A stretch of DNA of 64,000 nt from a virus. The translations under genes were made by a program, and so were the position numbers. Location of the stretch: IMG/VR virus record IMGVR_UViG_3300043449_002292, positions 1 through 64,000 of that record, one strand, 5' to 3'. The notes under the pieces were generated by a model. That model did no database searches, was not told where the DNA came from, and was given only the letters and a program-made list of their open reading frames with translations. Below, piece after piece: positions 965 to 61,368 of this stretch; the first letter of the stretch is position 1, and the number at the start of each line of letters is the position of its first letter.

Positions 965-1393
965 TCAGCTAAACTCACCTGAAATATAATCATATGTGCC
1001 CTCGCCGTGACCCACACAGCCCCCGTCCTCAAAGAACTCGATCCTGTGACGGACGAGCCCGTTGGGCCCCGGTTCAGCGTGGTTGTTCTCCATGAAGTTC
1101 GGGTCTCGAGGCGGCGCGCCAGTCCGCGAGCGATTCGTGATGACCCCCATCATCTTGTCGAATGGGATGATCTCTTGGTACTCGTTGATGATGATCCGGT
1201 CAGGTTCGATGAACATCCTGATCCAATCCTCGATGTTGTTGATCCCGAGCTCCGGGACGACGTGGAGGCTGAAGCACCAGCCCATCGAGCTCTTCCCGAT
1301 GTGGATGCAGTCCTCGGTCCCGCGGAGGTCCCAGAATGACTCGGCACTTTCGTAGTCGAAGCCTCGGCGGACGCTGTAGTAGTTCGTTCCCAT
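965..1393 (-). CDS. conserved hypothetical phage protein
   Basis: MGTNYY...HIGKSSxGWxF motif typical of a widespread phage family. Confidence 0.8.
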   Translation of the reverse strand: MGTNYYSVRRGFDYESAESFWDLRGTEDCIHIGKSSMGWCFSLHVVPELGINNIEDWIRMFIEPDRIIINEYQEIIPFDKMMGVITNRSRTGAPPRDPNFMENNHAEPGPNGLVRHRIEFFEDGGCVGHGEGTYDYISGEFS

Positions 1394-1396
1394 CGA

Positions 1397-1645
1397 TCAG
1401 CCTCCGCAGCGGCTCTCATGAAGGTTCACCTCACCCTCGATCAGGCCGAGGGTCGAGTATTCTCTGAAGTGCTTCACACCCGGTGACCAGCCCTCAGGAG
1501 CAGGCTGCGTCGCGTACCAGACACTGTCGCCCTTCCAGGTGACGTCGAAGACCTGCCGATCACAGGGGATCTGGATGTCCATGGTGCCGCCGAAGGATCG
1601 GGCGAGCTGGTTGTCGCAGGCAAGAAGCATGATGATCGTGAGCAT
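1397..1645 (-). CDS. small phage lipoprotein
   Basis: LLAC lipobox, then RxFGG...TWK..WY pattern common in phage lipoproteins. Confidence 0.7.
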   Translation of the reverse strand: MLTIIMLLACDNQLARSFGGTMDIQIPCDRQVFDVTWKGDSVWYATQPAPEGWSPGVKHFREYSTLGLIEGEVNLHESRCGG

Positions 1646-1656
1646 TTTATCTCCTT

Positions 1657-1896
1657 TCAAACCCAGTAATCGACGTTGTCAGGGGCGACGATCTCCGAGG
1701 CGTCGAGCTCCATGTGGTCGAAATCATAGTTCCGGCTGATGCACTGGCGGGCAAGCTCTTCAGCACGATCATTGATCGCATCGCCGGAGTATGACCCATC
1801 CTCATCGGGTGTGAGCTCATCCAGCCCGACAGCGACCTCGACCTCGACGGACTTCTCGCAGATCATCGTCACCTTGACCTTGAAGAACCTATCCAT
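1657..1896 (-). CDS. acidic hypothetical protein
   Basis: AAGGAGGTG SD, immediately downstream of a promoter. Confidence 0.7.
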   Translation of the reverse strand: MDRFFKVKVTMICEKSVEVEVAVGLDELTPDEDGSYSGDAINDRAEELARQCISRNYDFDHMELDASEIVAPDNVDYWV

Positions 1897-1899
1897 CGA

Positions 1900-2142
1900 T
1901 CACCTCCTTTGTGATCCAATCATACCATGCTCGCCACCCGTTTGCACGGGTTCATCGAGCTTCCTGAAGTGTGACTCTGAAAGAGTTTTTACACTGCCGT
2001 CGACGAACACGCGCCACTGGATGTCGAAGGGGATCGTGGAATCACGTTCGATGATGAGCCCGGGCATGCCGTGGATGTGCGCGAGCGAGCCGATCCGGAT
2101 CGACCGGGGAAGGTCAATCACGACGAGATCACCTGGTTTCAT
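1900..2142 (-). CDS. MKPGD-family small KOW/SH3-like protein
   Basis: MKPGDLV start; beta-rich pattern. Confidence 0.8.
   Translation of the reverse strand: MKPGDLVVIDLPRSIRIGSLAHIHGMPGLIIERDSTIPFDIQWRVFVDGSVKTLSESHFRKLDEPVQTGGEHGMIGSQRR
1919..1947 (-). promoter_or_regulatory. class I promoter GTGCAA-N17-TATGAT
   Basis: 17-nt spacer; motif repeated across the window. Confidence 0.75.
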
Positions 2143-2416
2143 CGATCACTTCGAGCTCACTGTTCTCCATGTCGTATTGCTCCCCATCGAAGAGCACGAC
2201 GCTTCCGCTGACGAGCATGCCTGGTGGCATCGGATGCACGTTCTTCCGCCACCCATCGATCACTAGCCCGATCGAGTTGATCATCGGGTCACCCGGGGAT
2301 TTCCAGTAGATCCCGTCGAGTCCGATGCCCGGCTTGAACCGCACGAGAGTTCCCAGTGGCAGGTGACCCTTGATGAAGACGTGAAGCTGCATGTAGGCCC
2401 ATCTCAGGATCCGCAT
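2129..2416 (-). CDS. SH3-like small protein (array member)
   Basis: internal PLGTLVR; ends LEVIDETR overlapping the next MKPGD. Confidence 0.7.
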   Translation of the reverse strand: MRILRWAYMQLHVFIKGHLPLGTLVRFKPGIGLDGIYWKSPGDPMINSIGLVIDGWRKNVHPMPPGMLVSGSVVLFDGEQYDMENSELEVIDETR

Positions 2417-2607
2417 CCGATCACCTTCCAATCGTAGTAGTTCTGATGCATGATCTCACCGTTGACGAGCAGCTTGCAGCCCCTGAGAAACTGGTCAAGC
2501 ATCTGGTTTCCCGACCGTGGCTCCTCGACCGAGATCACCAGCGCGACCGCGTCACCGATGACGAAGTTCTCGGGAAATTTTAGGGTCACGAGATCACCCG
2601 GTTTCAT
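2404..2607 (-). CDS. MKPGD-family small KOW/SH3-like protein
   Basis: MKPGDLV at 2607. Confidence 0.75.
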   Translation of the reverse strand: MKPGDLVTLKFPENFVIGDAVALVISVEEPRSGNQMLDQFLRGCKLLVNGEIMHQNYYDWKVIGCGS

Positions 2608-2791
2608 TGAGCGGCTCCGAGTGCTTGTGTACCCAATCAAGACTCCATGATCTCACATGCTTTCCACCGACTAGGAAGTCAACACTTTCATCTCTTTCCC
2701 TGACATCGGTGACCATGAAGATTGCACCTCCGTTGAACATGGGCGGCATGTCATCAGGGTATCTCCAGCGACGAAGGTCACCGGGTTTCAC
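2594..2791 (-). CDS. MKPGD-family small protein
   Basis: GTG-KPGDLRRW. Confidence 0.75.
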   Translation of the reverse strand: MKPGDLRRWRYPDDMPPMFNGGAIFMVTDVRERDESVDFLVGGKHVRSWSLDWVHKHSEPLNETG

Positions 2792-3018
2792 CCAATCACC
2801 TCGCTGTATGTGTGAATCTCCATCTGGGACACGTGCTCAACGAGGTTTCCGTCTTCGAGAATCGTCCACAAGATCTCACCGCGGTCTCTTCCGCTCCAGC
2901 CGAGATCGTTGCGTCTGTGATTTCGCTCAACCCGCATGCTGATGGTGATGAATGTCAACCCATCAAATTCTGCGGCTTTCCAGTTCCACCGACGCAGCTG
3001 TCCCTTCTTCACTCGCAT
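2788..3018 (-). CDS. MKPGD-related small protein
   Basis: VKKGQLRRW variant; ends EVIG. Confidence 0.7.
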   Translation of the reverse strand: MRVKKGQLRRWNWKAAEFDGLTFITISMRVERNHRRNDLGWSGRDRGEILWTILEDGNLVEHVSQMEIHTYSEVIG

Positions 3019-3200
3019 TCGATCACCTCCAGAAAGCTGCTGTCACACTCCTCCACGAGCTCCCCGTCGTGGATGTAATCGACAGCTGTCCATGAGCCCG
3101 CAACGGTGGGCAAGGGTCGCGGATCGACCTTGACGATGAGGACGATCTTTCCGCTTCGGATACCGACATCCTTGAGACGTGCGAGATCACCGGGCTTCAT
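3009..3200 (-). CDS. MKPGD-family small KOW/SH3-like protein
   Basis: MKPGDLARL...GKIVLIV...LEVI. Confidence 0.75.
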   Translation of the reverse strand: MKPGDLARLKDVGIRSGKIVLIVKVDPRPLPTVAGSWTAVDYIHDGELVEECDSSFLEVIECE

Positions 3201-3387
3201 CGAGCAGCTCCAGGTCTTCTTTTGCCCATGCCGTTTCACGATTGTCCCATAGGACCCACCAGTCGCATACTGAGTAGATGTCGATGCCATCGGCGTTGGT
3301 GACGGGCCTGAGGATCATGCAGACGTTAGAGTCACTCCACTCACGCCAGGCAGGATGCACGATCCTGCAGAGATCACCGGGTTTCAT
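3187..3387 (-). CDS. MKPGD-family small protein
   Basis: MKPGDLCRI...DLELLDEAR. Confidence 0.8.
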   Translation of the reverse strand: MKPGDLCRIVHPAWREWSDSNVCMILRPVTNADGIDIYSVCDWWVLWDNRETAWAKEDLELLDEAR

Positions 3388-3583
3388 CGATCTTCCACAG
3401 GTCCAGCTTGTGGACGGTCATTACCTTGCCATCGACCAGGACTTCCCAGATGTTGGGTGAGGATAGAACTCCGTCGGCTTCGCCCAAGTTTCGGATCAGA
3501 AGGCAGACCTTGCCTTCTTCTGCGCGAACCCAGGGTGTCTGATCCTTCGCCTTGATGATTCGCATGAGATCACCCGGCTTCAC
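3374..3583 (-). CDS. MKPGD-family small protein
   Basis: KPGDLMRI...WEVLVDG...IDETR. Confidence 0.8.
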   Translation of the reverse strand: MKPGDLMRIIKAKDQTPWVRAEEGKVCLLIRNLGEADGVLSSPNIWEVLVDGKVMTVHKLDLWKIDETR

Positions 3584-3752
3584 TGATCACCTCGTAACTG
3601 TAGACAAGCTTATTCTCAAGGTCGGCATCCCAGATCTTGCCATCAATTAGAAATCGCCAGCGGGCCCGGGCATTCAGGGGACTAAGACCGATGTAGACCC
3701 CGAGGTAGACGGCATCGAATCGTTTGATCCGAACGAGATCACCGGGTTTCAT
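3570..3752 (-). CDS. MKPGD-family small protein
   Basis: MKPGDLVRI at 3752. Confidence 0.75.
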   Translation of the reverse strand: MKPGDLVRIKRFDAVYLGVYIGLSPLNARARWRFLIDGKIWDADLENKLVYSYEVISEAG

Positions 3753-3942
3753 CGATCCTCCGAAGGTAATTCTCACCGATGTCACGGGTTGTGCCGTTGA
3801 CAAGGACTAGCCAGGTCTTGTGGACTGCGGTGAGCTGAGATTCCTCAACGATAACTGCAAAACGATTATTCCAGGTGTCGTAGGGAGAAAGATCCCAGAC
3901 ACTCTCTGGAAGCTCGATCCGAACGAGATCACCGGGCTTCAC
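3739..3942 (-). CDS. MKPGD-family small protein
   Basis: KPGDLVRI...WLVLVNG...IDETR. Confidence 0.8.
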   Translation of the reverse strand: MKPGDLVRIELPESVWDLSPYDTWNNRFAVIVEESQLTAVHKTWLVLVNGTTRDIGENYLRRIDETR

Positions 3943-4537
3943 CGATCACCTCCGTGAACGCCTCGAGGTAACCGCAGGTCGTTCCGAAGACGCCTCTAGG
4001 GCCGAGGCATTTACAATTCTTGAGGCCCTCGATCATGACGATCACGAAGGGCTCATCTCGATCGTCCTTCCAACGACGGAGCTCACCCACGCGGACGGAT
4101 GTGAACTCCCAGTCCCCTGGGTTGAGGGTGTGGATCACGTCGCCGATGTCAGCCCGGGGCCAAGGGTAGCCCCTGACGTAGCTCAGGCCCGTCACAACGC
4201 CTACAGTTCCGCGAGGGAAACGCAGCCTGTTCTTGTCGCAACGACGGTCCCTCCATGCGATCGCCGTGGCACCCTTGGGAATCGCGGTGAATCCTGGCTT
4301 GATCATGATACCATCATATCCTATGGCAGGTCGTGTTGCACGGGTGAGCCCCACTCGTTCTGGTCCTCGCTGGAGGGTGGAGTTGATACGGACCCATTCG
4401 ACAGTGAAGGTCATGAGCGCACCCTCGCTGAGGATCTGGCAGACGAGCCCGTTGAGATGCTTGAGAACGATGAGAGGTCTCCCGCCCAGCCCAGGGGCGA
4501 CGTCGTCCGCCCACCATCGAAGCTCACCCGGTTGCAT
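3929..4537 (-). CDS. in-frame fusion of three MKPGD-like modules
   Basis: MQPGELRW / MIKPG / VRVGELRRW modules in one frame, with an internal promoter. Confidence 0.6.
   Translation of the reverse strand: MQPGELRWWADDVAPGLGGRPLIVLKHLNGLVCQILSEGALMTFTVEWVRINSTLQRGPERVGLTRATRPAIGYDGIMIKPGFTAIPKGATAIAWRDRRCDKNRLRFPRGTVGVVTGLSYVRGYPWPRADIGDVIHTLNPGDWEFTSVRVGELRRWKDDRDEPFVIVMIEGLKNCKCLGPRGVFGTTCGYLEAFTEVIGEAR
4313..4341 (-). promoter_or_regulatory. class I promoter GTGCAA-N17-TATGAT (internal; leaderless ATG at 4306)
   Basis: motif and 17-nt spacing. Confidence 0.7.
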
Positions 4538-4796
4538 TCAACGTCGTTACCTCATCCTCGACCACCCAGCAGACTCGATCGTTGAGGAGAACCTCCAGCA
4601 TCGTGTATGATGTCGGGTCGCGGTCCGGATCGCCCGAGACGTATCTTCCCGGAAGCAGGAGACCGATCTGGTCGTGCTCCCACTTGCCCTGCCAGTCGTC
4701 GGTGCCGTCAGGTCGGTTCCAGACATCTAGATAGGTGATAGGAACCTTGCATGCGACGTTCCACCTTCGGGGCTTCAGGAGATCGCCAGGCTTCAT
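4524..4796 (-). CDS. MKPGD-family small protein
   Basis: MKPGDLL at 4796. Confidence 0.75.
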   Translation of the reverse strand: MKPGDLLKPRRWNVACKVPITYLDVWNRPDGTDDWQGKWEHDQIGLLLPGRYVSGDPDRDPTSYTMLEVLLNDRVCWVVEDEVTTLNATG

Positions 4797-5035
4797 CGTT
4801 GCGCGTCCGCGAGTGTGGCGTGGCTCGCCCCCGCCCACCAGAGCTCTCCGCCGATGAGGAGCTGGAGCTTCATGACGTCGAACCCTCCGACCTTCCGGAC
4901 CCCCACTGCGACGACGACCGCGACCTCACCGGGATCCCAGGCACGCTCACGACCCCGGCTCGAGAAGGTGGGATGCATGCTGTCACGGACGATGACACCC
5001 GCGTAGGCAGGCAGCACGAGATCACCCTTCTGCAT
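4793..5035 (-). CDS. MKPGD-family small protein
   Basis: MQKGDLV. Confidence 0.75.
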   Translation of the reverse strand: MQKGDLVLPAYAGVIVRDSMHPTFSSRGRERAWDPGEVAVVVAVGVRKVGGFDVMKLQLLIGGELWWAGASHATLADAQR

Positions 5036-5189
5036 TGCTCAGTTCCCACGGAAAGTAGTAGAGGCACTCACCGTCGGATGTGAGAACGCGGTATGCGGTC
5101 TCGCCCTCGGTCACGTCCACCTCGACGATCAACCCGAGCCCAAAATCGCAGTTATCGGCGACAACATGGACGAGATCACTGATTCCCAT
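5022..5189 (-). CDS. 55-aa SH3-like array member (below ORF-track cutoff)
   Basis: MGISDLVHVVADNCDFGLGLIVEV...YRVL...WELSNAEG; 14-nt overlaps at both ends. Confidence 0.7.
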   Translation of the reverse strand: MGISDLVHVVADNCDFGLGLIVEVDVTEGETAYRVLTSDGECLYYFPWELSNAEG

Positions 5190-5457
5190 CTAGCACCTCA
5201 AGGTCCTCGATGCGGACTGCCCTCATGATTCCATCGACGAGACCATGTGCCTCCTCCACCTCTACATGAATCTCATCCTGTCCAAGCATCGAGCCCGTGT
5301 CCCACTCCTTCGAAACCCCCAGAACGAGGAATGGCTTCCCCTCGAGGATCCAATCGTATCCCAAGCGCTTCACGCGGACGAGGTCACCCACGTGGACCGG
5401 CTGCGAGCAGCCGAACCTGGGCTCGTTCAGGTAGAACAGGACGGGTTTCTCATCCAT
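5176..5457 (-). CDS. SH3/KOW-like protein (VGDLVRV)
   Basis: VGDLVRVK...EDLEVL; ATG 7 nt from the -10 box. Confidence 0.7.
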   Translation of the reverse strand: MDEKPVLFYLNEPRFGCSQPVHVGDLVRVKRLGYDWILEGKPFLVLGVSKEWDTGSMLGQDEIHVEVEEAHGLVDGIMRAVRIEDLEVLDGNQ

Positions 5458-5463
5458 ATGATC

Positions 5464-5492
5464 ATCATACCACATCGGCAGGTGGATTGCAC
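5464..5492 (-). promoter_or_regulatory. class I promoter GTGCAA-N17-TATGAT
   Basis: motif and spacing. Confidence 0.75.
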
Positions 5493-5671
5493 GGGACCAG
5501 CAGGTCGGGTGTGACCTCTATGATCTTCCCATGCCACAGGATCCGCCAGATCGTAAGGGGCTTCCCGCGTTTGCTGTGGGTGGCGACGATGAGGGCCGGC
5601 TCATCATGGAACTTCCTCATATAGGCCCCGAGTCCCACGACCCTGATGAGAACGAGATCACCGGGCTTCAT
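5465..5671 (-). CDS. MKPGD-family small protein
   Basis: MKPGDLVLI. Confidence 0.75.
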   Translation of the reverse strand: MKPGDLVLIRVVGLGAYMRKFHDEPALIVATHSKRGKPLTIWRILWHGKIIEVTPDLLVPCNPPADVV

Positions 5672-5858
5672 CTACCAACTCAAGATGATCGATCAGGAAG
5701 AATTCATTACCGTCCCAGAGCATAACATTGGCGACCTCATCGCAGTCATCGAAGCTCCACGCCGTGCTGATCACGAATCCCAACTCGCTCTCATCGTAGA
5801 GACGACGACCGCAAAGAAAACGAGACGGTTTAAGTTTAACAAGATCACCTGATTTCAT
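5658..5858 (-). CDS. MKPGD-family small protein
   Basis: MKSGDLVKL...LELVDEAR. Confidence 0.75.
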   Translation of the reverse strand: MKSGDLVKLKPSRFLCGRRLYDESELGFVISTAWSFDDCDEVANVMLWDGNEFFLIDHLELVDEAR

Positions 5859-37825: not shown

Positions 37826-38284
37826 TCAGATCAGTGCTATCTGGCGAACCTTTACACCCGCTTCTCTCAAGAGATCGATGCCTGACGTGTCACGATAGCG
37901 TTCGATGTAGACTATCTCATCGATTCTAGCATTAACAATCGCCTTCGCGCACATACGACATGGGCTGAGACTCACGTACATCTTCTTACGTTTCGGGCTG
38001 TTAAAGTCGAGTTTGATGAGAGCATTTACCTCGGCATGGATAAACCCTGATTCACCGGCGGCGGAGGATTCACGTGTGTTTGATCCGCCAGCGTGATCCC
38101 CGTTGTATCCGAGGGAGAGCAACTGCGTGTTATCATCCGTGACCACGATTGCGGCCACCTTAAAGTTGGGATCTGGGGATCTTTTTGAGATTGTTCGGAC
38201 TACGTCAGCCCAGATAAGATCCCAGCTGGGACGATCGTCGATTGGATTACAGCGTAAATCGTTGAGAAAATCGTTATGGGTCAA
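37826..38284 (-). CDS. dCMP deaminase
   Basis: GYNG, HAEVNA, SPCRMC. Confidence 0.92.
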   Translation of the reverse strand: MTHNDFLNDLRCNPIDDRPSWDLIWADVVRTISKRSPDPNFKVAAIVVTDDNTQLLSLGYNGDHAGGSNTRESSAAGESGFIHAEVNALIKLDFNSPKRKKMYVSLSPCRMCAKAIVNARIDEIVYIERYRDTSGIDLLREAGVKVRQIALI

Positions 38285-41131: not shown

Positions 41132-42115
41132 TCACCTCTTGAAAAAATGATAACCCTTGAAATCAGTCGAGAGCAGAAATCTAATTGACAGCTTTTCATC
41201 CTTCATCTTCCTCGCTCTAACCGAGCAGAGGATGTCACACCAATCCCTGATCAATGACTGTGAAAGCTGTTCATCAGTCTGATCGATCAGTTTCGGGGAG
41301 ACGAATACCATCCCGTCCCTGATCACGCCTTCGTTGGTCGAACGAACAGCCTCCTCAACGCGTATCAGATCGACTATCGGAAAGACCTTCGGATACGGCT
41401 GCATCGGACGACCGAAGTTATCGCTGGAATTCGCGATCGCGTCCAGCATCTCGAAGTCCCTCTCGTAGCAGTGGAGCGAGTTCGAGGTGTGGACATACTC
41501 ACCGAGCTCGACCCCCAGCTCATTCGCCATGATCTCCTGCATCGTGGTGAATGCCGGAACGTCGTAGGCGATGCCGAGGATGATATCGCTCGACCGCATG
41601 TTGACGTGGAGGTGGAGCTTGCCCTCACGGATAAAGAACTGGAGCGCGAGGGTGCACGGGACATCCTTCACTGCGTGGAGGGAGTCGTCAGGGGTCCTGA
41701 TGTGGATCACCGCCCGACGGGAGTCGGGATCCTTCCGGAGCTCCTCCTTCACGTAATCCCACTGGACGATACCGCCTGCCGCGATCCGATCATGCGGTCG
41801 GAAGATTCGAGCCCCGTAGGCGGAGTTCGCCGTCTTGCCGTCATCGCTGATTCCCTTCCAGAACGATGCGTAATACGAGATCCACTCCGTGGAATCGTTA
41901 CCGCTCAGATACCACAGAGTCTCCGCGACGAAATATGACAGGGAGAAATTTCGAGCTTCCACAAATGGGAGACGATCACGCGGATCCTTAATCCTGAACT
42001 GAACGCCCAGTTTCTCCTTGATCTTCATCCCACGAGGAGATGAAACAAACTCAGACTCATCCCTGACCATCCTACAAAGATCAATGTAGGCCTGCGTGAA
42101 ATTACCGTATGTCAT
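41132..42115 (-). CDS. thymidylate-synthase homologue, predicted dCMP hydroxymethylase-type
   Basis: SRRA, PC catalytic Cys, MRSSD..LG..YD with Asp at the E. coli ThyA Asn177 position (codon 41561-41563), SLH.Y. Confidence 0.85.
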   Translation of the reverse strand: MTYGNFTQAYIDLCRMVRDESEFVSSPRGMKIKEKLGVQFRIKDPRDRLPFVEARNFSLSYFVAETLWYLSGNDSTEWISYYASFWKGISDDGKTANSAYGARIFRPHDRIAAGGIVQWDYVKEELRKDPDSRRAVIHIRTPDDSLHAVKDVPCTLALQFFIREGKLHLHVNMRSSDIILGIAYDVPAFTTMQEIMANELGVELGEYVHTSNSLHCYERDFEMLDAIANSSDNFGRPMQPYPKVFPIVDLIRVEEAVRSTNEGVIRDGMVFVSPKLIDQTDEQLSQSLIRDWCDILCSVRARKMKDEKLSIRFLLSTDFKGYHFFKR

Positions 42116-42639
42116 GTATTCATCTCCAACCACGTGAGAATCTCGGTGATCTCCCTGTTAAGATTCTCGTCATCGACCCAAAGTGTGAGGCACTCGCATT
42201 TCGTCCACGCTTGGAATTGCTCATAGAGACCGTCCAGCTTCCTGAGGGCTTCCTCGTCAATGTAATCGTGCAGGTCGTCACGTATCCCAGAGTAGCTCTT
42301 GCGACGGCAGATAACGAACTTACCGCCAGCCTCAGCAAACTTGTCATCAATCTTCCTGAGGATCTCAAAGTCAGTGTCCCTGTTGAAGAACTGCGCATAC
42401 ACCCACTCGGAGGCATGATTTCGGTCCATGATCACGCTGGTTCCCGTCTGCAGGAGGAACTCGGTCAGGAACGTGGATCCGTAAATCAGCAGATTCTTGA
42501 AGTAGCTCGGATCGTGAAGATCCGCATACCATTCGCCCTTGTTCTTGAAAGTAGGAACTCCGAGAAGTCTCGATAGCTCAGCGGCGATCTCGGACTTACC
42601 CGTCATGTCTGGACCCTCGAGTCCGATCAAAATTGCCAT
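42112..42639 (-). CDS. dNMP kinase (thymidylate kinase-like)
   Basis: EGPD.TGKS P-loop, DR...SE.VY. Confidence 0.85.
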   Translation of the reverse strand: MAILIGLEGPDMTGKSEIAAELSRLLGVPTFKNKGEWYADLHDPSYFKNLLIYGSTFLTEFLLQTGTSVIMDRNHASEWVYAQFFNRDTDFEILRKIDDKFAEAGGKFVICRRKSYSGIRDDLHDYIDEEALRKLDGLYEQFQAWTKCECLTLWVDDENLNREITEILTWLEMNT

Positions 42640-42640
42640 T

Positions 42641-43696
42641 TCAGCCTCTCTTCGCGTGTTGCTCGATTATATCAATCTTATGCCCAGGGCTAAAATCGAC
42701 AACCTTGCGAAGGGCATTTTCCTGCTGTTCGATAATTTCGACTCTCTCCTTCACGCTCATCTGCGAGATTCTCATAACGCAGCGAATCACATCTGATGGA
42801 TCATCAACGAGAAAATCGCCTAAGCCGACGGGTCTAGCGTGAACGTATTCATTCGGAATCAGTGAGATGACGCCGGCTTGGATCGCCTCCGTGAATCGCA
42901 TCGTGATGTTGCCGTAAGGTGTGTAATCATCACGTGTGATGTGGGTCACGGCCACGGAGTTGTTGATGACGCCGAAGATCTCCTTGTAAGCAAGTCGATG
43001 ACCGAAAGCGATGTTCGGATTCTCGCGAAGCAGGATGCTTGGATCCTTGCGCTCAGGGCTCCTCTCAAGCCAGTTACCCCAGACCTTCGTCTGGATCCCA
43101 CGCTCCCGTAGTGCCTGACTTGGGTTCGAGTAATACTTTTTGAACTGCGGGTCACGATCGTAGTTGTTACCCACATAGGTGTAGTTGTATGAATACTCAG
43201 CGGGCTTGAAGAGCCGTCGTGCCGAGGAAGCCCATGGCATCGAGATTCGAGAACGCGTCTGCTCACGTGGATTGATGCAAGCGTCCGCGAGCTGAGCATT
43301 CGGCCAGCGAAGCTCCTCCTCCGGGGTCATCTTCAGATCGCCGTCATGGATGATGATGGGAACGCCCTTCTTGTGATAGTGGTCGAGGAGCTCACACTGC
43401 CGTCGGTAGTCCGGCTCGGTCGCCCGATCGCCCCCGAGGCTTGCATCATTCTTCCAGGTCGGCCAGCGCCACTCAACGAAGAGAACGTCACCTTCCGGAA
43501 ATCCAGTATCGTCGTATTCGACACCGGAATAGGGTTCGTCGTCTCGACGCTTCTGCACCTGGACCATGGTGTGGCCGCGGCGCTGCATCTCATCGACCAG
43601 ATCAACTCGACCACCACGATAGTGGTCGGGGGTGTTCGAAACAGTTTGCTTTTCGAAAGGGGTTACAAAGCCCCAGAATGAGTATAGAATTCGCAC
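42641..43696 (-). CDS. GT-B glycosyltransferase, T4 beta-glucosyltransferase-like
   Basis: YVGN..DR; Y...G.ITMRFTEAI..G resembles BGT 'FITLRVWETM'. Confidence 0.75.
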   Translation of the reverse strand: MRILYSFWGFVTPFEKQTVSNTPDHYRGGRVDLVDEMQRRGHTMVQVQKRRDDEPYSGVEYDDTGFPEGDVLFVEWRWPTWKNDASLGGDRATEPDYRRQCELLDHYHKKGVPIIIHDGDLKMTPEEELRWPNAQLADACINPREQTRSRISMPWASSARRLFKPAEYSYNYTYVGNNYDRDPQFKKYYSNPSQALRERGIQTKVWGNWLERSPERKDPSILLRENPNIAFGHRLAYKEIFGVINNSVAVTHITRDDYTPYGNITMRFTEAIQAGVISLIPNEYVHARPVGLGDFLVDDPSDVIRCVMRISQMSVKERVEIIEQQENALRKVVDFSPGHKIDIIEQHAKRG

Positions 43697-56256: not shown

Positions 56257-56640
56257 TCAGTATCCGTCTTTTAGTCTTCGACAGATTTTCTCGTGCTTCT
56301 TGAGGTATGCTTCATGCAGCTCATCAGGAGTGACACCCACGAGCTTCAGTGTCGTAAAGAAGTACTTCATCGCATCGACGATCTCCTCAAGGAATGCCTC
56401 ACGATCGAGATGAGGAACGTCGGTCTGACGATGAGGCTTGGCATTCTTCAGCTCCTGCAGAGCCTCGAACATCTCCTCCACACCGCGAAGGGTCACGTCA
56501 CGGACAAGCGTCTGTGATTGCTTCGTCGAGAGATCGATCGGCCACTGGGGGTAGTAACCCTCGAAGCGTTCACAAAGGAGCTGCATGAACTCCTCGCGAA
56601 GCTCGAACATCTGATCGAGCTTGTCAGTTGACGTCGACAT
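56257..56640 (-). CDS. all-alpha dCTPase/dUTPase (T4 gp56-like)
   Basis: EE.FE....KP; EEIVD...F; Y..K.......GY. Confidence 0.8.
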   Translation of the reverse strand: MSTSTDKLDQMFELREEFMQLLCERFEGYYPQWPIDLSTKQSQTLVRDVTLRGVEEMFEALQELKNAKPHRQTDVPHLDREAFLEEIVDAMKYFFTTLKLVGVTPDELHEAYLKKHEKICRRLKDGY

Positions 56641-56866
56641 TCGCCATGCCCTCGGCGGCGAGCTCATCAGCCTTGTCCGAGAGACGCTGAACAGCATCCA
56701 GGAAGGCCTGATTGTCAGCGTCGTTGATCATGAGCTTGCTCCCGTCGACCGTCAGTCGAAGGGTCCTGAGATTATCGATGATGTCAGTTCCAGTCAGCAG
56801 GGCGAGCTGAAGAAGGTCGACGATGCGGACGATAGCCTGATCAGAAAGTGTAACTGTCTCGTTCAT
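56624..56866 (-). CDS. hypothetical protein
   Basis: AGGAG SD. Confidence 0.7.
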   Translation of the reverse strand: MNETVTLSDQAIVRIVDLLQLALLTGTDIIDNLRTLRLTVDGSKLMINDADNQAFLDAVQRLSDKADELAAEGMANVDVN

Positions 56867-56916
56867 TTGATTTCTCCTGTTAGATTGTAATAGAAGCTGA
56901 GGAGGTTTATAGGAAG

Positions 56917-57726
56917 CTAGTTCTGTCTTGTCGGCGCCCACCAGGTGGTTCGACCGTCGAGTGTCTCTTCCCTGATTACCTCTTCTCCATCTTCGTCTTT
57001 AGTTCTTCCATAGCAGAGAAAAGCTTCTCCGTAGCCACCCTCGTTGTTATCAAAGTCCTTATATGATTTGATCGTTGCCCCCTGAGACTGGTATGAATCC
57101 CGGAGCACTCTCTTGATGCTGTCATTGAGAGCTTCGAACTCCTCTAGACTCAGGGAATCAACCTTTCGGTGCGGAGAGAGCCGGGCAAGCCAGAGCGAAT
57201 CGGCCTTCACGTAATTACCAACGCCAGCGATGATCCCCTGATCCATCACCGCCTCGGCAAGGGTCCACTTCGGTTTCTTCAAGAGGGACTCCTGGAACCG
57301 CTCATGGCTCACGTCCTCGGCCAGCATGTCAGGACCCAGGGTCCTTAGCTTGTCAGCCAGCTTCCGCCGCCCCCGGACCCACTTCAGAGTCCCAAAGTTA
57401 CGGGTGTCATTGTAGTAGACATCCGTTCCATCGTCGAGGCTCAGACGCATTCTGGCGTGGCGCGATGCACTTCGTGACCAATGACCCGTCATGCCCAGAG
57501 TCGACCAGATCGAGGAGTCCCCGCCGTCGAGCAGGATGTAGATGAACTTGCCATGGCACCCAGCGCCGACGATCCGCTTGGGCAGCTCAGAAACAAGTTC
57601 GTCGTAACCGTCGAAGGGTCGCTTATCGTAGCGTCCTGACAGGATCTTCAAACCCACGATCGTTCGGTCTGTGAGAGCTCGAGCGAGACCCTCGGCAGCG
57701 AGCTTGCATTCGGGACCTTCAGGCAC
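56917..57726 (-). CDS. Fpg/Nei DNA glycosylase lacking the Zn finger
   Basis: PEGPE, GKF, LGMTG, D.RNFG, LGPD, DQ..IAGVGN, GRTTWW. Confidence 0.92.
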   Translation of the reverse strand: MPEGPECKLAAEGLARALTDRTIVGLKILSGRYDKRPFDGYDELVSELPKRIVGAGCHGKFIYILLDGGDSSIWSTLGMTGHWSRSASRHARMRLSLDDGTDVYYNDTRNFGTLKWVRGRRKLADKLRTLGPDMLAEDVSHERFQESLLKKPKWTLAEAVMDQGIIAGVGNYVKADSLWLARLSPHRKVDSLSLEEFEALNDSIKRVLRDSYQSQGATIKSYKDFDNNEGGYGEAFLCYGRTKDEDGEEVIREETLDGRTTWWAPTRQN

Positions 57727-58144
57727 TTGCCACCCCCAGGGTCTTCATCAGATGATGATGGTAATCATTGAGAGCGTGATCGTTCGGTTGCACGGCGCGC
57801 CAATCGCCGAGGATGAAGATCCGATAAGCGTCATCACCGTACTTGCCGATACCGTGGAGCTCCTTAGCCTGCTTCCAGCCGCCCGCAGCATACTCAGCCG
57901 ACATCCGCTTGAGGGTCTGCGTTCGCTTCCGCTGCATGCCGAGCGGCCGGATGAGATCCTCGAGGTCAGCGTCCGGTGCTGTTGCAAGCGCCTGTGGTGT
58001 GGGCCAGCGTTGGAACATCTCCTCGACGACGGGTTCCATCTGAGCACGCTTCGTGAGATTGAGGCACAGGCAGCAGACGAGGATCTTCCAGCCGTCTGGC
58101 CAGTACTTCTCCTGAATGAGACCGAATTTAGGTGGAATCCACAT
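57719..58144 (-). CDS. MBD4-like HhH DNA glycosylase
   Basis: W......LN.T; PLG; ELHGIGKYG.D.YRIF; P.DH.LN.Y. Confidence 0.85.
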   Translation of the reverse strand: MWIPPKFGLIQEKYWPDGWKILVCCLCLNLTKRAQMEPVVEEMFQRWPTPQALATAPDADLEDLIRPLGMQRKRTQTLKRMSAEYAAGGWKQAKELHGIGKYGDDAYRIFILGDWRAVQPNDHALNDYHHHLMKTLGVASA

Positions 58145-58184: not shown

Positions 58185-58562
58185 CTACCCGACTCCTACG
58201 AAGCCGTTTGAACCCGTGATGGTCAGGAAATTCCTGGTTGGAATGCCCGTGAGCCCCGCGATAACCGAATACGATATCGAGGCAGCGGTTGAGCTCGAGA
58301 GGAACAAGGTATCCGTTCTAATTTCACCAGTATAGCTGCTTCCCGACGGAACCGAGAAGTAGTTCGTTCCCTTGACGCCAGCTTCAGTAAACCCAAACCT
58401 GAGTGTCAATGAGCTGTTATTCTGTATCGTGAAGAAGCGGGTTACAAACGGGAAACTTACCTGGTTCACAGTCGTAACCGTCGAAGACGTTACGAATGGA
58501 ACTGCCGAAACCTGATAGGCTGGGACGAAACCCTCATGCATCGATGGATTATTCAAGCTCAT
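58185..58562 (-). CDS. putative virion protein, paralog of 13867-14265
   Basis: shared motifs; ATATTTA upstream. Confidence 0.75.
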   Translation of the reverse strand: MSLNNPSMHEGFVPAYQVSAVPFVTSSTVTTVNQVSFPFVTRFFTIQNNSSLTLRFGFTEAGVKGTNYFSVPSGSSYTGEIRTDTLFLSSSTAASISYSVIAGLTGIPTRNFLTITGSNGFVGVG

Positions 58563-59499: not shown

Positions 59500-60132
59500 C
59501 TAGTATCCGAACGCCTCAATCGTATGCTGAAACGGCTTACCCTCGATCTCTCGAACCTGCTGCAGCATCTCCTCCGCTAGCCAGCAGATCTCGCGTTGAG
59601 CGTCTGGCTTCATTCGAAGTCCGAGGAAATGGTTGAAAGATCGCCAGTTGAACATCACGTCCATGGTGATCTGGTTGCCGTATGGAAGGTAGAAGCGTGC
59701 TGATTCTTTGGCTCGCTTTCGATCCATTCCCCCGTCAACAAGCCTCTGCAAGGTCTCATGGTAGCGCATGATCGCGTCTTCCATAAATGCGATATACCTT
59801 GACTGCTCCTCGATCGACCAATCCTTTGGCAGGTAGTACTTGTCATCCTTCAGCTCCTTGTACCGAGCCGACTCGGCATTGATCGAGACCCCGATACGAT
59901 GCTTGAGGAGCTGGACATGGACGCTTGTATCCACTGTTACTAGGAATTGCAGGCTCGACTTTTCAAAAACCGTGTGATGGCCCTGCTCCGCAAGCATTTT
60001 TAGAAGTTGCGGAATTCTGTTACGCTTATCATTGGTAATTTCTCGTGATGTCGACGTCCACGCAGACAATGCGTGCGTTTCGTCTGATCCGTACCACCCA
60101 GTAAGCTGAACCTTGTTATCCTGAAATGACAT
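59500..60132 (-). CDS. thyX: flavin-dependent thymidylate synthase
   Basis: H...FE, KHR......ESARY, KESARF.LP, AQREI. Confidence 0.93.
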   Translation of the reverse strand: MSFQDNKVQLTGWYGSDETHALSAWTSTSREITNDKRNRIPQLLKMLAEQGHHTVFEKSSLQFLVTVDTSVHVQLLKHRIGVSINAESARYKELKDDKYYLPKDWSIEEQSRYIAFMEDAIMRYHETLQRLVDGGMDRKRAKESARFYLPYGNQITMDVMFNWRSFNHFLGLRMKPDAQREICWLAEEMLQQVREIEGKPFQHTIEAFGY

Positions 60133-60337
60133 TTCTCAATCTCTCCCTGATGTATTTGTCCCAGGTGATTTCAAATCCCCACTGCACCAGCATGAGAGTG
60201 GGTCCGATGACGATGGTGATTCCTGCGGATTTTGTGACCTCACCAGTGAATGCGAATGCAATCAGAAATCCGCATGACATCGAGAGCACTCGCCAAGCAA
60301 TCACCTTGGCGAGCAGCTCAAGCTTCGCTGGTTTCAC
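60116..60337 (-). CDS. DUF2061-like membrane protein
   Basis: K.IAWR.....TG.......E..W. Confidence 0.7.
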   Translation of the reverse strand: MKPAKLELLAKVIAWRVLSMSCGFLIAFAFTGEVTKSAGITIVIGPTLMLVQWGFEITWDKYIRERLRNVISG

Positions 60338-61368
60338 ATAGCCACGCAGACTGTCTCAAGCAAAAGGCGGGTAACGACGTATGGATCGACGTTAGCACAG
60401 GGTCGACGATCCTCGAGGTATCCGCAGCCCTCCTGCGCGACGTGCAAGGGAATCCGAATCGAAGCACCTCGATCGCTCACACCCCATCGAAACTCTCGGT
60501 AGGAGCACGTCTCGTGGTGACCAGTGAGACGAAGCTCAATACCGTGACCGTAGTGAGAAATGTGATGCTCATGGCGAGCGCTAAGCCGTTCGCAAGCTTC
60601 CTTGATCGCATGGATTCCTTCGGGTTCACGCATCCTCTTCGTTGAGAAATTGGTATGGGCACCTGCACCGTTGAGCTCTGCTACAGGCTTCGGATCGAGC
60701 TTCACGGTAATCCCGTGCTTCTCACCAATCCGGTAGAGAAGCCAACGAGCAAAGATGAGGTGATCGGAGACTGTAAGAGCGTCCGCAGTTCCAACCTGGA
60801 ACTCCCACTGGCCGGGCATCACCTCAGCGTTGATTCCGCAGAGTAGGATCCGGGAGTCGAGGCAAGCGGCCATGTGTTCCTCGACAAGCTCACGACCGAA
60901 GACCTCATCGCTTCCGACACCACAGTAGAATGGACCCTGCTGAGGTGGGTATCCACCCGTAGGCCAGCCGAGGGGTCGACCGTCCTTGAACATCGTGTAT
61001 TCCTGCTCGATTCCGAACAGAGGCTCGTGCTCGAGTGTTCTCGCCATGACTTCACGAAGCTTACTGCGAGTATTAGACTCATGAGGCTGCCCATCGGCAG
61101 TAAACACTTCACAAAGAACAAGAATGTGAACTCTCTCGTGATTCTTATCCCGAGTGGGATCGAGTATAAAATGAGCTGGAATCAGGACACAATCGCTCTT
61201 GTCTCCTGTCGCCTGCCCAGTAGAAGATCCATCGAAAGTCCAACGAGGAACATCCTCAATTCCAAAGGGCTTGCTGGAATTATCGTATTGAAAAACTTTA
61301 GTCTTGCTTCGGAGCTTATGGGTTGGCTGGCTTCCATCCTGCCAGATGTATTCGGCAACGATGTTCAT
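60334..61368 (-). CDS. glnII: glutamine synthetase type II
   Basis: AEYIW.DG, LRSKT, W.FDGSST.QA, EQEY, YCGVG, NAEVMPGQWEFQVG, NGAG.HTNFST, RLTG.HET, EDRRP. Confidence 0.95.
   Translation of the reverse strand: MNIVAEYIWQDGSQPTHKLRSKTKVFQYDNSSKPFGIEDVPRWTFDGSSTGQATGDKSDCVLIPAHFILDPTRDKNHERVHILVLCEVFTADGQPHESNTRSKLREVMARTLEHEPLFGIEQEYTMFKDGRPLGWPTGGYPPQQGPFYCGVGSDEVFGRELVEEHMAACLDSRILLCGINAEVMPGQWEFQVGTADALTVSDHLIFARWLLYRIGEKHGITVKLDPKPVAELNGAGAHTNFSTKRMREPEGIHAIKEACERLSARHEHHISHYGHGIELRLTGHHETCSYREFRWGVSDRGASIRIPLHVAQEGCGYLEDRRPCANVDPYVVTRLLLETVCVAM

Follow-up and report, generated by a model that had tools for sequence, protein, structure and literature searches.

The sequence studied here (the window) comprises the first 64 kb of the 142,859-bp phage contig IMGVR_UViG_3300043449_002292 from IMG/VR, for which completeness is estimated at ~43%. 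Towards its end, a minus-strand run of genes encodes ThyX, a VanY-type endolysin, a 125-amino-acid (aa) protein, a DNA glycosylase, Nei, a 105-aa protein, a pyrophosphohydrolase and a tail-fibre protein. The glycosylase, an open reading frame (ORF) of 141 aa, is a complete MBD4-type HhH-GPD domain whose resemblance to MBD4 goes far beyond chance. We regard it as probable, at roughly 60%, that this enzyme excises uracil-type pyrimidines opposite G in the phage's own modified DNA and that the neighbouring Nei then takes over. The original prediction covered positions 56257–58144, a range that also spans the Nei, the 105-aa protein and the pyrophosphohydrolase. The features of this region are:

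57719–58144, minus strand: stand-alone MBD4-type HhH-GPD DNA glycosylase, predicted to be monofunctional, 141 aa (Pfam HhH-GPD 8e-9; PDB MBD4 E 8e-33)
56917–57726, minus strand: predicted Nei-type bifunctional glycosylase/abasic-site (AP) lyase with a zincless finger, 269 aa (Pfam Fapy_DNA_glyco 7.6e-17, H2TH 2.5e-17)
56624–56941, minus strand: conserved 105-aa protein of unassigned function between Nei and the pyrophosphohydrolase, with no Pfam or PHROG match above threshold; syntenic in IMG/VR relatives L002, L005–L008 and L010
56257–56697, minus strand: all-alpha (MazG/dUTPase_2-like) nucleoside triphosphate (NTP) pyrophosphohydrolase (phrog_12184 'nucleotide pyrophosphohydrolase' 5.5e-14); syntenic in relatives
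58185–58562, minus strand: conserved 125-aa protein directly upstream of the glycosylase, with no Pfam or PHROG match; syntenic in L002–L009
58610–59446, minus strand: VanY-type endolysin
59500–60132, minus strand: ThyX flavin-dependent thymidylate synthase (Pfam Thy1 2.3e-37)
60334–61368, minus strand: glutamine-synthetase-like gene beside ThyX, 344 aa (Gln-synt_N and Gln-synt_C)

The 141-aa ORF holds the motifs ELHGIGKYGDDAYRIF ... QPNDHALNDYH, on which its likeness to MBD4 had been proposed, and this assignment was borne out by both sequence and structure comparisons. In a phmmer search against the PDB, 15 MBD4 entries matched residues 2–133 at E 8e-33, and the next enzyme classes followed at 0.09 (EndoIII), 0.24 (MIG) and 0.9 (MutY). 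An AlphaFold2 model built from an alignment of 58 homologues (mean pLDDT 94.7) was compared with solved structures using Foldseek, in which the top 16 hits were all MBD4 structures (TM-score 0.90–0.94, root-mean-square deviation 0.9–2.4 Å, 134–142 columns; 0.93 for 4e9e/6vjw). MIG 1kea came next with a TM-score of 0.65, and HhH-GPD enzymes with an Fe-S cluster reached 0.57–0.67 overall. The Cys4 Fe-S motif is absent, as had been noted, the only cysteines being those in VCCLCL. On these E-values (0.09–0.9) and TM-scores and the missing Cys4 motif, membership in the Nth, MutY or MIG families was ruled out. MIG, which removes T or U opposite G, EndoIII and MutY belong to the same HhH-GPD superfamily but differ from the phage protein in their Fe-S cluster and greater length. 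No PHROGs family exists for the 141-aa protein. Compared with the glycosylase domain of mammalian MBD4/MED1 (3IHO, 4E9E-H, 4DK9, 4EVV, 4EW0, 6VJW), the same compact Fe-S-free fold is present at ~39–45% identity, and the catalytic Asp, the hairpin Tyr, the base-reading Gln and Leu506 are common to both; unlike the mammalian enzyme, the phage protein consists of the HhH-GPD domain only, with neither the N-terminal methyl-CpG-binding domain (MBD) nor a linker, and it is phage-encoded and apparently coupled to Nei.

Residue roles were taken from two structure papers of 2012 (PMC3479182, PMC3458566) and mapped via the MBD4 alignment, and conservation was counted in 75 viral-clade sequences and 144 eukaryotic homologues. 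Gln449 of MBD4, which reads thymine N3/O2 and whose replacement (Q449A) leaves the enzyme inactive (PMC3479182), corresponds to Gln11 (FGLIQE), kept in 75/75 viral-clade sequences. Tyr540, where a change to Phe nearly abolishes MBD4 activity (PMC3458566), corresponds to Tyr102 in the hairpin GIGKY and is invariant in all groups; because this Tyr stands in place of the Schiff-base Lys, the enzyme is predicted to be monofunctional. The catalytic Asp (human D560) is Asp122 in QPNDH, found in each of the 74 viral-clade rows with coverage at this position and in 144/144 eukaryotic rows, and not, as previously suggested, the Asp of the GKYGDD hairpin. Human Leu466, Asn467 and Leu506 are identical in the phage protein and Leu508 is conservatively replaced by Met, but the Arg468 finger, which in human MBD4 occupies the space vacated by the flipped base, has become Leu30 (LNLTKR), with an Arg at +3, and Lys562 has become Ala. 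At the finger position, the viral clade carries Leu (61), Gln (12) or Arg (1), with Arg at +3 in 74/75, and the eukaryotic homologues carry K (74), R (37), Q (14), C (9) or V (6); position 562 is Ala in 68 viral-clade sequences and K, M or A in eukaryotes. Since the eukaryotic homologues vary at both positions, the two replacements fall inside the family's own variation.

Relatives of the protein were sought in metagenomes, cultured phages and cellular genomes. A word-indexed search returned 96 near-length metagenomic homologues (40–94% identity), and an exhaustive HMMER search over 1.84 billion cluster representatives gave 2606 matches, of which the best 150 were mostly proteins of 200–1300 aa with the domain at the C-terminus. 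Among the best matches were eukaryotic MBD4s, with top identities of 47–51% over the catalytic domain according to cluster look-ups, from Prasinoderma, Phaeocystis, Acrasis, Chara, Ceratiomyxa, Pigoraptor, Mastigamoeba, Pteridium, a mollusc and a bird. The algal and protist MBD4s (Prasinoderma, Phaeocystis, Chara, Acrasis), together with plant MBD4L, are thus the nearest non-viral relatives, but these are multidomain proteins of 220–1300 aa with the catalytic domain C-terminal, whereas the phage form is stand-alone. Longer or fused forms were not detected in a set of 5.8 billion proteins, a weak negative, as eukaryotic multidomain proteins did turn up afterwards in the exhaustive search. Not all eukaryotic homologues have the MBD, and the one from Acrasis kona (P0100, KAL0484736.1) has a chromo domain where the MBD would be.

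Only three groups matched among 50,697 cultured-phage records, namely eight Bradleyvirinae (Xp12, YB23, Ep029, MET13-T1, FMYAK-P1, AXL_1, DoCa6, and Donnerlittchen), cyanophage S-TIM54 and one Aeropyrum virus, whose homologue is longer and Cys-rich. For the Xp12 and S-TIM54 proteins the best PDB match was again MBD4 (5e-14 and 4e-15, vs. 5e-4 for EndoIII). Queries for three subclades gave 60, 132 and at least 561 confirmed IMG/VR stretches. The 185,579 species genomes of GTDB, scanned with patterns of the window protein's clade, yielded a single match on a 6.4-kb contig of a metagenome-assembled genome (MAG). This contig (L019, NYZO01000017.1, 'archaeon isolate ARS54') belongs to an archaeal MAG and encodes a homologue 56% identical to the window protein; it may be a mis-binned viral contig. 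Full-text literature searches found no description of stand-alone MBD4-type glycosylases in phages or prokaryotes (one seeming match proved to be an accession number that starts with 'MBD4'), and in GenBank the Xp12 copy (QNN97216.1) is labelled 'hypothetical protein' and the Donnerlittchen copy 'endonuclease III'. The region gave no megablast match to cultured phages, and the DnaE of this phage is < 30% identical to that of any cultured phage, so that no host or taxon could be assigned.

Trees were computed with FastTree (238 rows) and with IQ-TREE in quick and careful runs (78 rows). The window protein lies within a 19-row viral clade (support 99/97), from which the S-TIM54-like and Xp12-like groups are separate. 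A single clade of all viral forms was neither recovered nor rejected (approximately unbiased test, p = 0.475), and the backbone does not settle whether eukaryotic MBD4 includes the viral forms or is their sister group, hence it supports no direction of transfer. The Xp12/Bradleyvirinae glycosylase is MBD4-type with a Leu at the finger and is likewise accompanied by a MazG/PRA-PH pyrophosphohydrolase and an Asp-type thymidylate synthase (TS) homologue, but it is 36% identical to the window protein, keeps Lys562 and occurs in genomes that have no Nei.

The last codons of the glycosylase gene and the GTG start of Nei share 8 nt (GTGCCTGA), this start being pinned by the requirement that Pro be residue 2 in an Fpg/Nei enzyme. 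Nei begins with M-P-E-G-P-E, which supplies the catalytic pair of N-terminal Pro and Glu, and it possesses the H2TH domain and a single Cys in its C-terminal 60 aa, with no zinc-finger cysteines. Its best PDB matches (3a45/3a42/3vk7/4nrw) extend end to end at E 7e-39; 3A46 is mimivirus MvNei1. Given the M-P-E-G-P-E start and the lack of zinc-finger cysteines, the 269-aa neighbour belongs to the zincless Nei enzymes of the NEIL1/MvNei1 type rather than to Fpg, and the overlap argues that glycosylase and Nei are translationally coupled. The adjacent Fpg/Nei-family member that had been noted is present in the window, as a zincless Nei. The order ThyX-(VanY)-125-aa protein-glycosylase-Nei-105-aa protein-pyrophosphohydrolase is kept in close IMG/VR relatives, and on a metagenome contig from NCBI (L020) whose glycosylase is 49% identical, Nei again lies at a distance of one gene, and ThyX, an epimerase and DnaE are encoded close by.

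For the pyrophosphohydrolase (56257–56697), Pfam dUTPase_2 scored 0.0019, below the cut-off, and no PDB relative was found. It had been proposed to be a dCTPase, the function of T4 gp56, of which the assignment to all-alpha NTP pyrophosphohydrolases holds, and specificity for dCTP would be a suggestion from generic NTP pyrophosphohydrolase similarity and context. Its longest ORF shares 74 nt with the 105-aa gene before it; the true start is probably an internal ATG (residue 21, MSTSTDK...), with which the overlap would be 14 nt.

A nucleotide-metabolism set lies 16 kb from the glycosylase, beside DnaE, and includes genes for a dCMP deaminase, a DHH phosphoesterase, a thymidine kinase, a cupin, an NDP-sugar epimerase, a TS-fold enzyme, a dNMP-kinase-like protein and a glycosyltransferase-like protein. 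The members with coordinates of interest here are:

41132–42133, minus strand: TS-fold pyrimidine hydroxymethylase homologue, dCMP hydroxymethylase-like (best PDB match MilA 1e-47)
37826–38284, minus strand: dCMP deaminase (Pfam dCMP_cyt_deam_1 1.8e-19)
42112–42639, minus strand: dNMP-kinase-like protein adjoining the TS homologue (phrog_761 thymidylate kinase 1.3e-9)
42641–43696, minus strand: glycosyltransferase-like protein near the TS homologue (Pfam Glyco_trans_1_2 1.5e-4, weak and below the cut-off)

The top solved relative of the TS-fold enzyme is thus the CMP hydroxymethylase MilA, and its nearest relatives in cultured phages form the SPO1 gp29 hydroxymethylase family. By alignment it has an Asp at the position of E. 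coli N177, confirming the Asp-type TS homologue expected in this genome, where SPO1 gp29 (a dUMP hydroxymethylase) has Asn, and a further Asp at the L143 position (motifs AYDVPAF and KDVPC). Cytosine specificity is conferred by an Asp at the N177 position, and access for water by an acidic residue at L143 (PMC13326640); by these criteria, Asp at both positions indicates a presumably dCMP-specific enzyme making a non-methyl C5 group, hydroxymethyl or perhaps hydroxyl. ThyX is the genuine dTMP source of the phage.

Xp12 is a classic 5-methylcytosine (5mC) phage. Both there and in Donnerlittchen, the glycosylase gene is immediately followed by those for a MazG/PRA-PH pyrophosphohydrolase, a TS homologue, dCMP deaminase and DHFR, and the TS homologues of Xp12, Donnerlittchen and S-TIM54 all carry the Asp. 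The pyrophosphohydrolase directly after the Xp12 glycosylase (QNN97215.1, L001:6389–7162) is annotated as 'hydrolase (HAD superfamily)' and scores as PRA-PH, MazG-like (6.6e-15); it is probably the dCTP/dUTP-clearing enzyme of that phage. In order to survey uncultured phages, we considered 29 long IMG/VR contigs (109–482 kb) carrying the glycosylase. A TS-fold gene was found in 18/29, with an Asp-type copy in all 18 (approximately four sequence subtypes in addition to those of Xp12 and S-TIM54), and a canonical Asn-type ThyA was also present in just three of the 29. The only background figure for this survey is the 7.6% of cultured phage records with any ThyA-fold match; a DnaE-based search for glycosylase-free relatives returned almost exclusively contigs that already carry the glycosylase. 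One seemingly TS-less contig of 171 kb (G002, IMGVR_UViG_3300010885_057925, L270) has its DnaE at 1138–5767, near the contig end, and as the TS gene adjoins DnaE in the window, its absence there would be explained by the contig being cut. The proposed co-occurrence with Asp-type TS is therefore upheld in Xp12-like phages, S-TIM54 and 18 of the 29 contigs, but fails in two near-complete genomes without TS and in Bradleyvirinae that have TS without the glycosylase. The glycosylase is an accessory gene, tied to C5-cytosine replacement frequently but not obligatorily.

Based on the family, the fold, the conserved catalytic and recognition residues, the gene overlap and the co-occurrence with Asp-type TS, we infer what the enzyme acts on, how Nei takes over from it and which base the phage uses, as follows. 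The cytosine of this phage is very probably replaced by a 5-hydroxymethyl-derived, possibly glycosylated, cytosine, and deamination of this modified base would create a mispair of the type G:5-hydroxymethyluracil (5hmU), beyond the reach of host Ung. Where T, U, 5hmU or, probably, a uracil with another 5-substituent is mispaired with G, the MBD4-type enzyme would flip out and excise the base and could thus start base excision repair, after which the coupled zincless Nei would cut the abasic site by beta,delta-elimination. MBD4, itself monofunctional, comes off the abasic product only slowly (PMC3458566), and NEIL1 stimulates another monofunctional glycosylase, TDG (PMC5566547); taken together with the overlap of the two phage genes, this suggests a two-step initiation in which Nei may displace the slow-turnover glycosylase from its product by analogy with NEIL1/TDG, the cooperation in this phage being deduced from the gene overlap only. 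The gap would be filled with modified dCTP, from a pool that the pyrophosphohydrolase may clear of dCTP itself. That such chemistry fits fully substituted phage genomes is shown by the mouse MBD4 domain, which acts on T:G and hmU:G in deaminated DNA of Xp12 (5mC) and T4gt (5-hydroxymethylcytosine, 5hmC), clearing them in all sequence contexts (bioRxiv 10.1101/2023.03.02.530819).

Several observations weigh against this reading. Both the Arg468 finger and Lys562 are replaced in the phage enzyme, and a K-to-A change lowers mouse MBD4 activity 5–10 fold (PMC3458566). The TS homologue could be a 5-hydroxy-dCMP synthase, as the diagnostic residues are common to both activities (PMC13326640). In several close relatives (L002, L005, L006), 1.6–3.4 kb splits glycosylase and Nei; the only insert examined, that of L005 (4062–7394), holds two genes for LRV/HEAT-repeat proteins of 521 and 582 aa. 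No H2TH gene is present in Xp12, Donnerlittchen, S-TIM54 or a 67%-identical contig (G001), so that the part of the original prediction in which the AP-lyase activity comes from an adjacent Fpg/Nei does not extend to these. Neither a TS fold nor a C5-methyltransferase was found in G011 (100% complete) and G030 (91%), both were missing from all six S-TIM54-like IMG/VR contigs tested (0/6), and many Bradleyvirinae have an Asp-type TS and no glycosylase.

The same absences would be expected if the enzyme were a general G:U/G:T mismatch glycosylase acting on ordinary deamination and replication errors, with no special tie to cytosine modification and with the modules being merely the usual place for phage repair genes, an explanation that we consider rather unlikely but deserving of serious attention. 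It would account for the patchy presence of the gene within Bradleyvirinae and for its surroundings in TS-less genomes, as in G011 and the S-TIM54-like G030 and L021 the glycosylase sits among ribonucleotide reductase (RNR), Clp, topoisomerase II, radical-SAM and dCMP-deaminase genes. It would also agree with the lack of a UDG-family gene in the 143 kb of this contig; UDG, PNK3P and ATP-dependent ligase families were not found in this record, which says little for a genome ~43% complete. A general role does not, however, explain why the gene is placed directly inside the 5mC module of Xp12-like phages, nor the 18/29 contigs with an Asp-type TS of several unrelated subtypes when Asn-type ThyA occurs in 3 and any ThyA-fold gene in at most 7.6% of cultured phage records. 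Two other functions appear far less probable. Phages with fully substituted cytosine destroy C-containing host DNA, with T4 as the paradigm, and a glycosylase coupled to an AP lyase could be imagined as an offensive enzyme that strips bases from unmodified host DNA, modified phage DNA being spared, with Nei nicking the abasic sites; such an attack on the host had been raised in the original prediction. It is very improbable, as the pocket residues that bind the O2/N3-H/O4 face of uracil-type bases, i.e., the Watson-Crick edge of uracil and thymine, are invariant, so that cytosine would be excluded, MBD4 requires a G-mispaired target, and the gene is also present in genomes without modification genes. 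Equally hard to credit is a counter-defence role, in which the enzyme would repair G:U/G:T lesions that DNA-cytosine deaminases of the host, or comparable mutator defences, inflict on phage DNA. The chemistry would be suitable and the wide spread of the family among phages from the environment (IMG/VR stretches numbering at least 561, 132 and 60 in the three subclades) might speak for it, but neither a host nor a deaminase defence or anti-defence setting could be identified, and the gene neighbourhood is one of nucleotide metabolism and replication, not an anti-defence island.

Repair of deaminated modified cytosine thus remains our preferred function, and it could be taken further. The phage MBD4-type enzymes might form a distinct and widespread viral branch in which the finger loop, rebuilt with Leu and Arg(+3), and the C5 pocket, opened by Lys562-to-Ala, are adapted to deaminated hypermodified cytosine (e.g., glycosylated 5hmU) in any sequence context, acting with a zincless Nei as a dedicated two-enzyme repair module and linked to the eukaryotic MBD4 domain by direct horizontal transfer. 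This extended version is speculative and, on balance, we doubt it.

MBD4 is seen as a eukaryotic enzyme that guards methylated CpG sites, and a compact stand-alone form of it is widespread in large phages that are uncultured: the gene is present on hundreds of IMG/VR contigs, and a copy still annotated as 'hypothetical' lies in the 5mC module of Xp12. This suggests that phages which rewrite their cytosine bring along matching deamination repair, a testable account of how substituted genomes could avoid C-to-T decay, and raises the question of kinship between the eukaryotic MBD4 domain and the viral forms. Small and possibly context-independent T:G/hmU:G glycosylases could also be of use in methylation-sequencing chemistry.

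Additional observations were made on the relatives of the locus. In the S-TIM54-like clade (L021:7201–9915, L191:3438–4337) radical-SAM enzymes and a short-chain dehydrogenase/epimerase are encoded next to the glycosylase, and in L021 a dCMP deaminase also adjoins it; since no TS-fold gene is present in the long contigs of this clade that were searched, these phages may have a different pathway of nucleotide or DNA modification. Proteins of 267–290 aa (P0142/P0263, L022:10001–10804) have the MBD4-type domain at the N-terminus followed by ~150 unassigned C-terminal residues; the 88-kb viral contig on which they lie has further genes for UvdE, Cpn60 and a papain-like peptidase. The glutamine-synthetase-like neighbour of ThyX is ~80% conserved in relatives L005 and L009.

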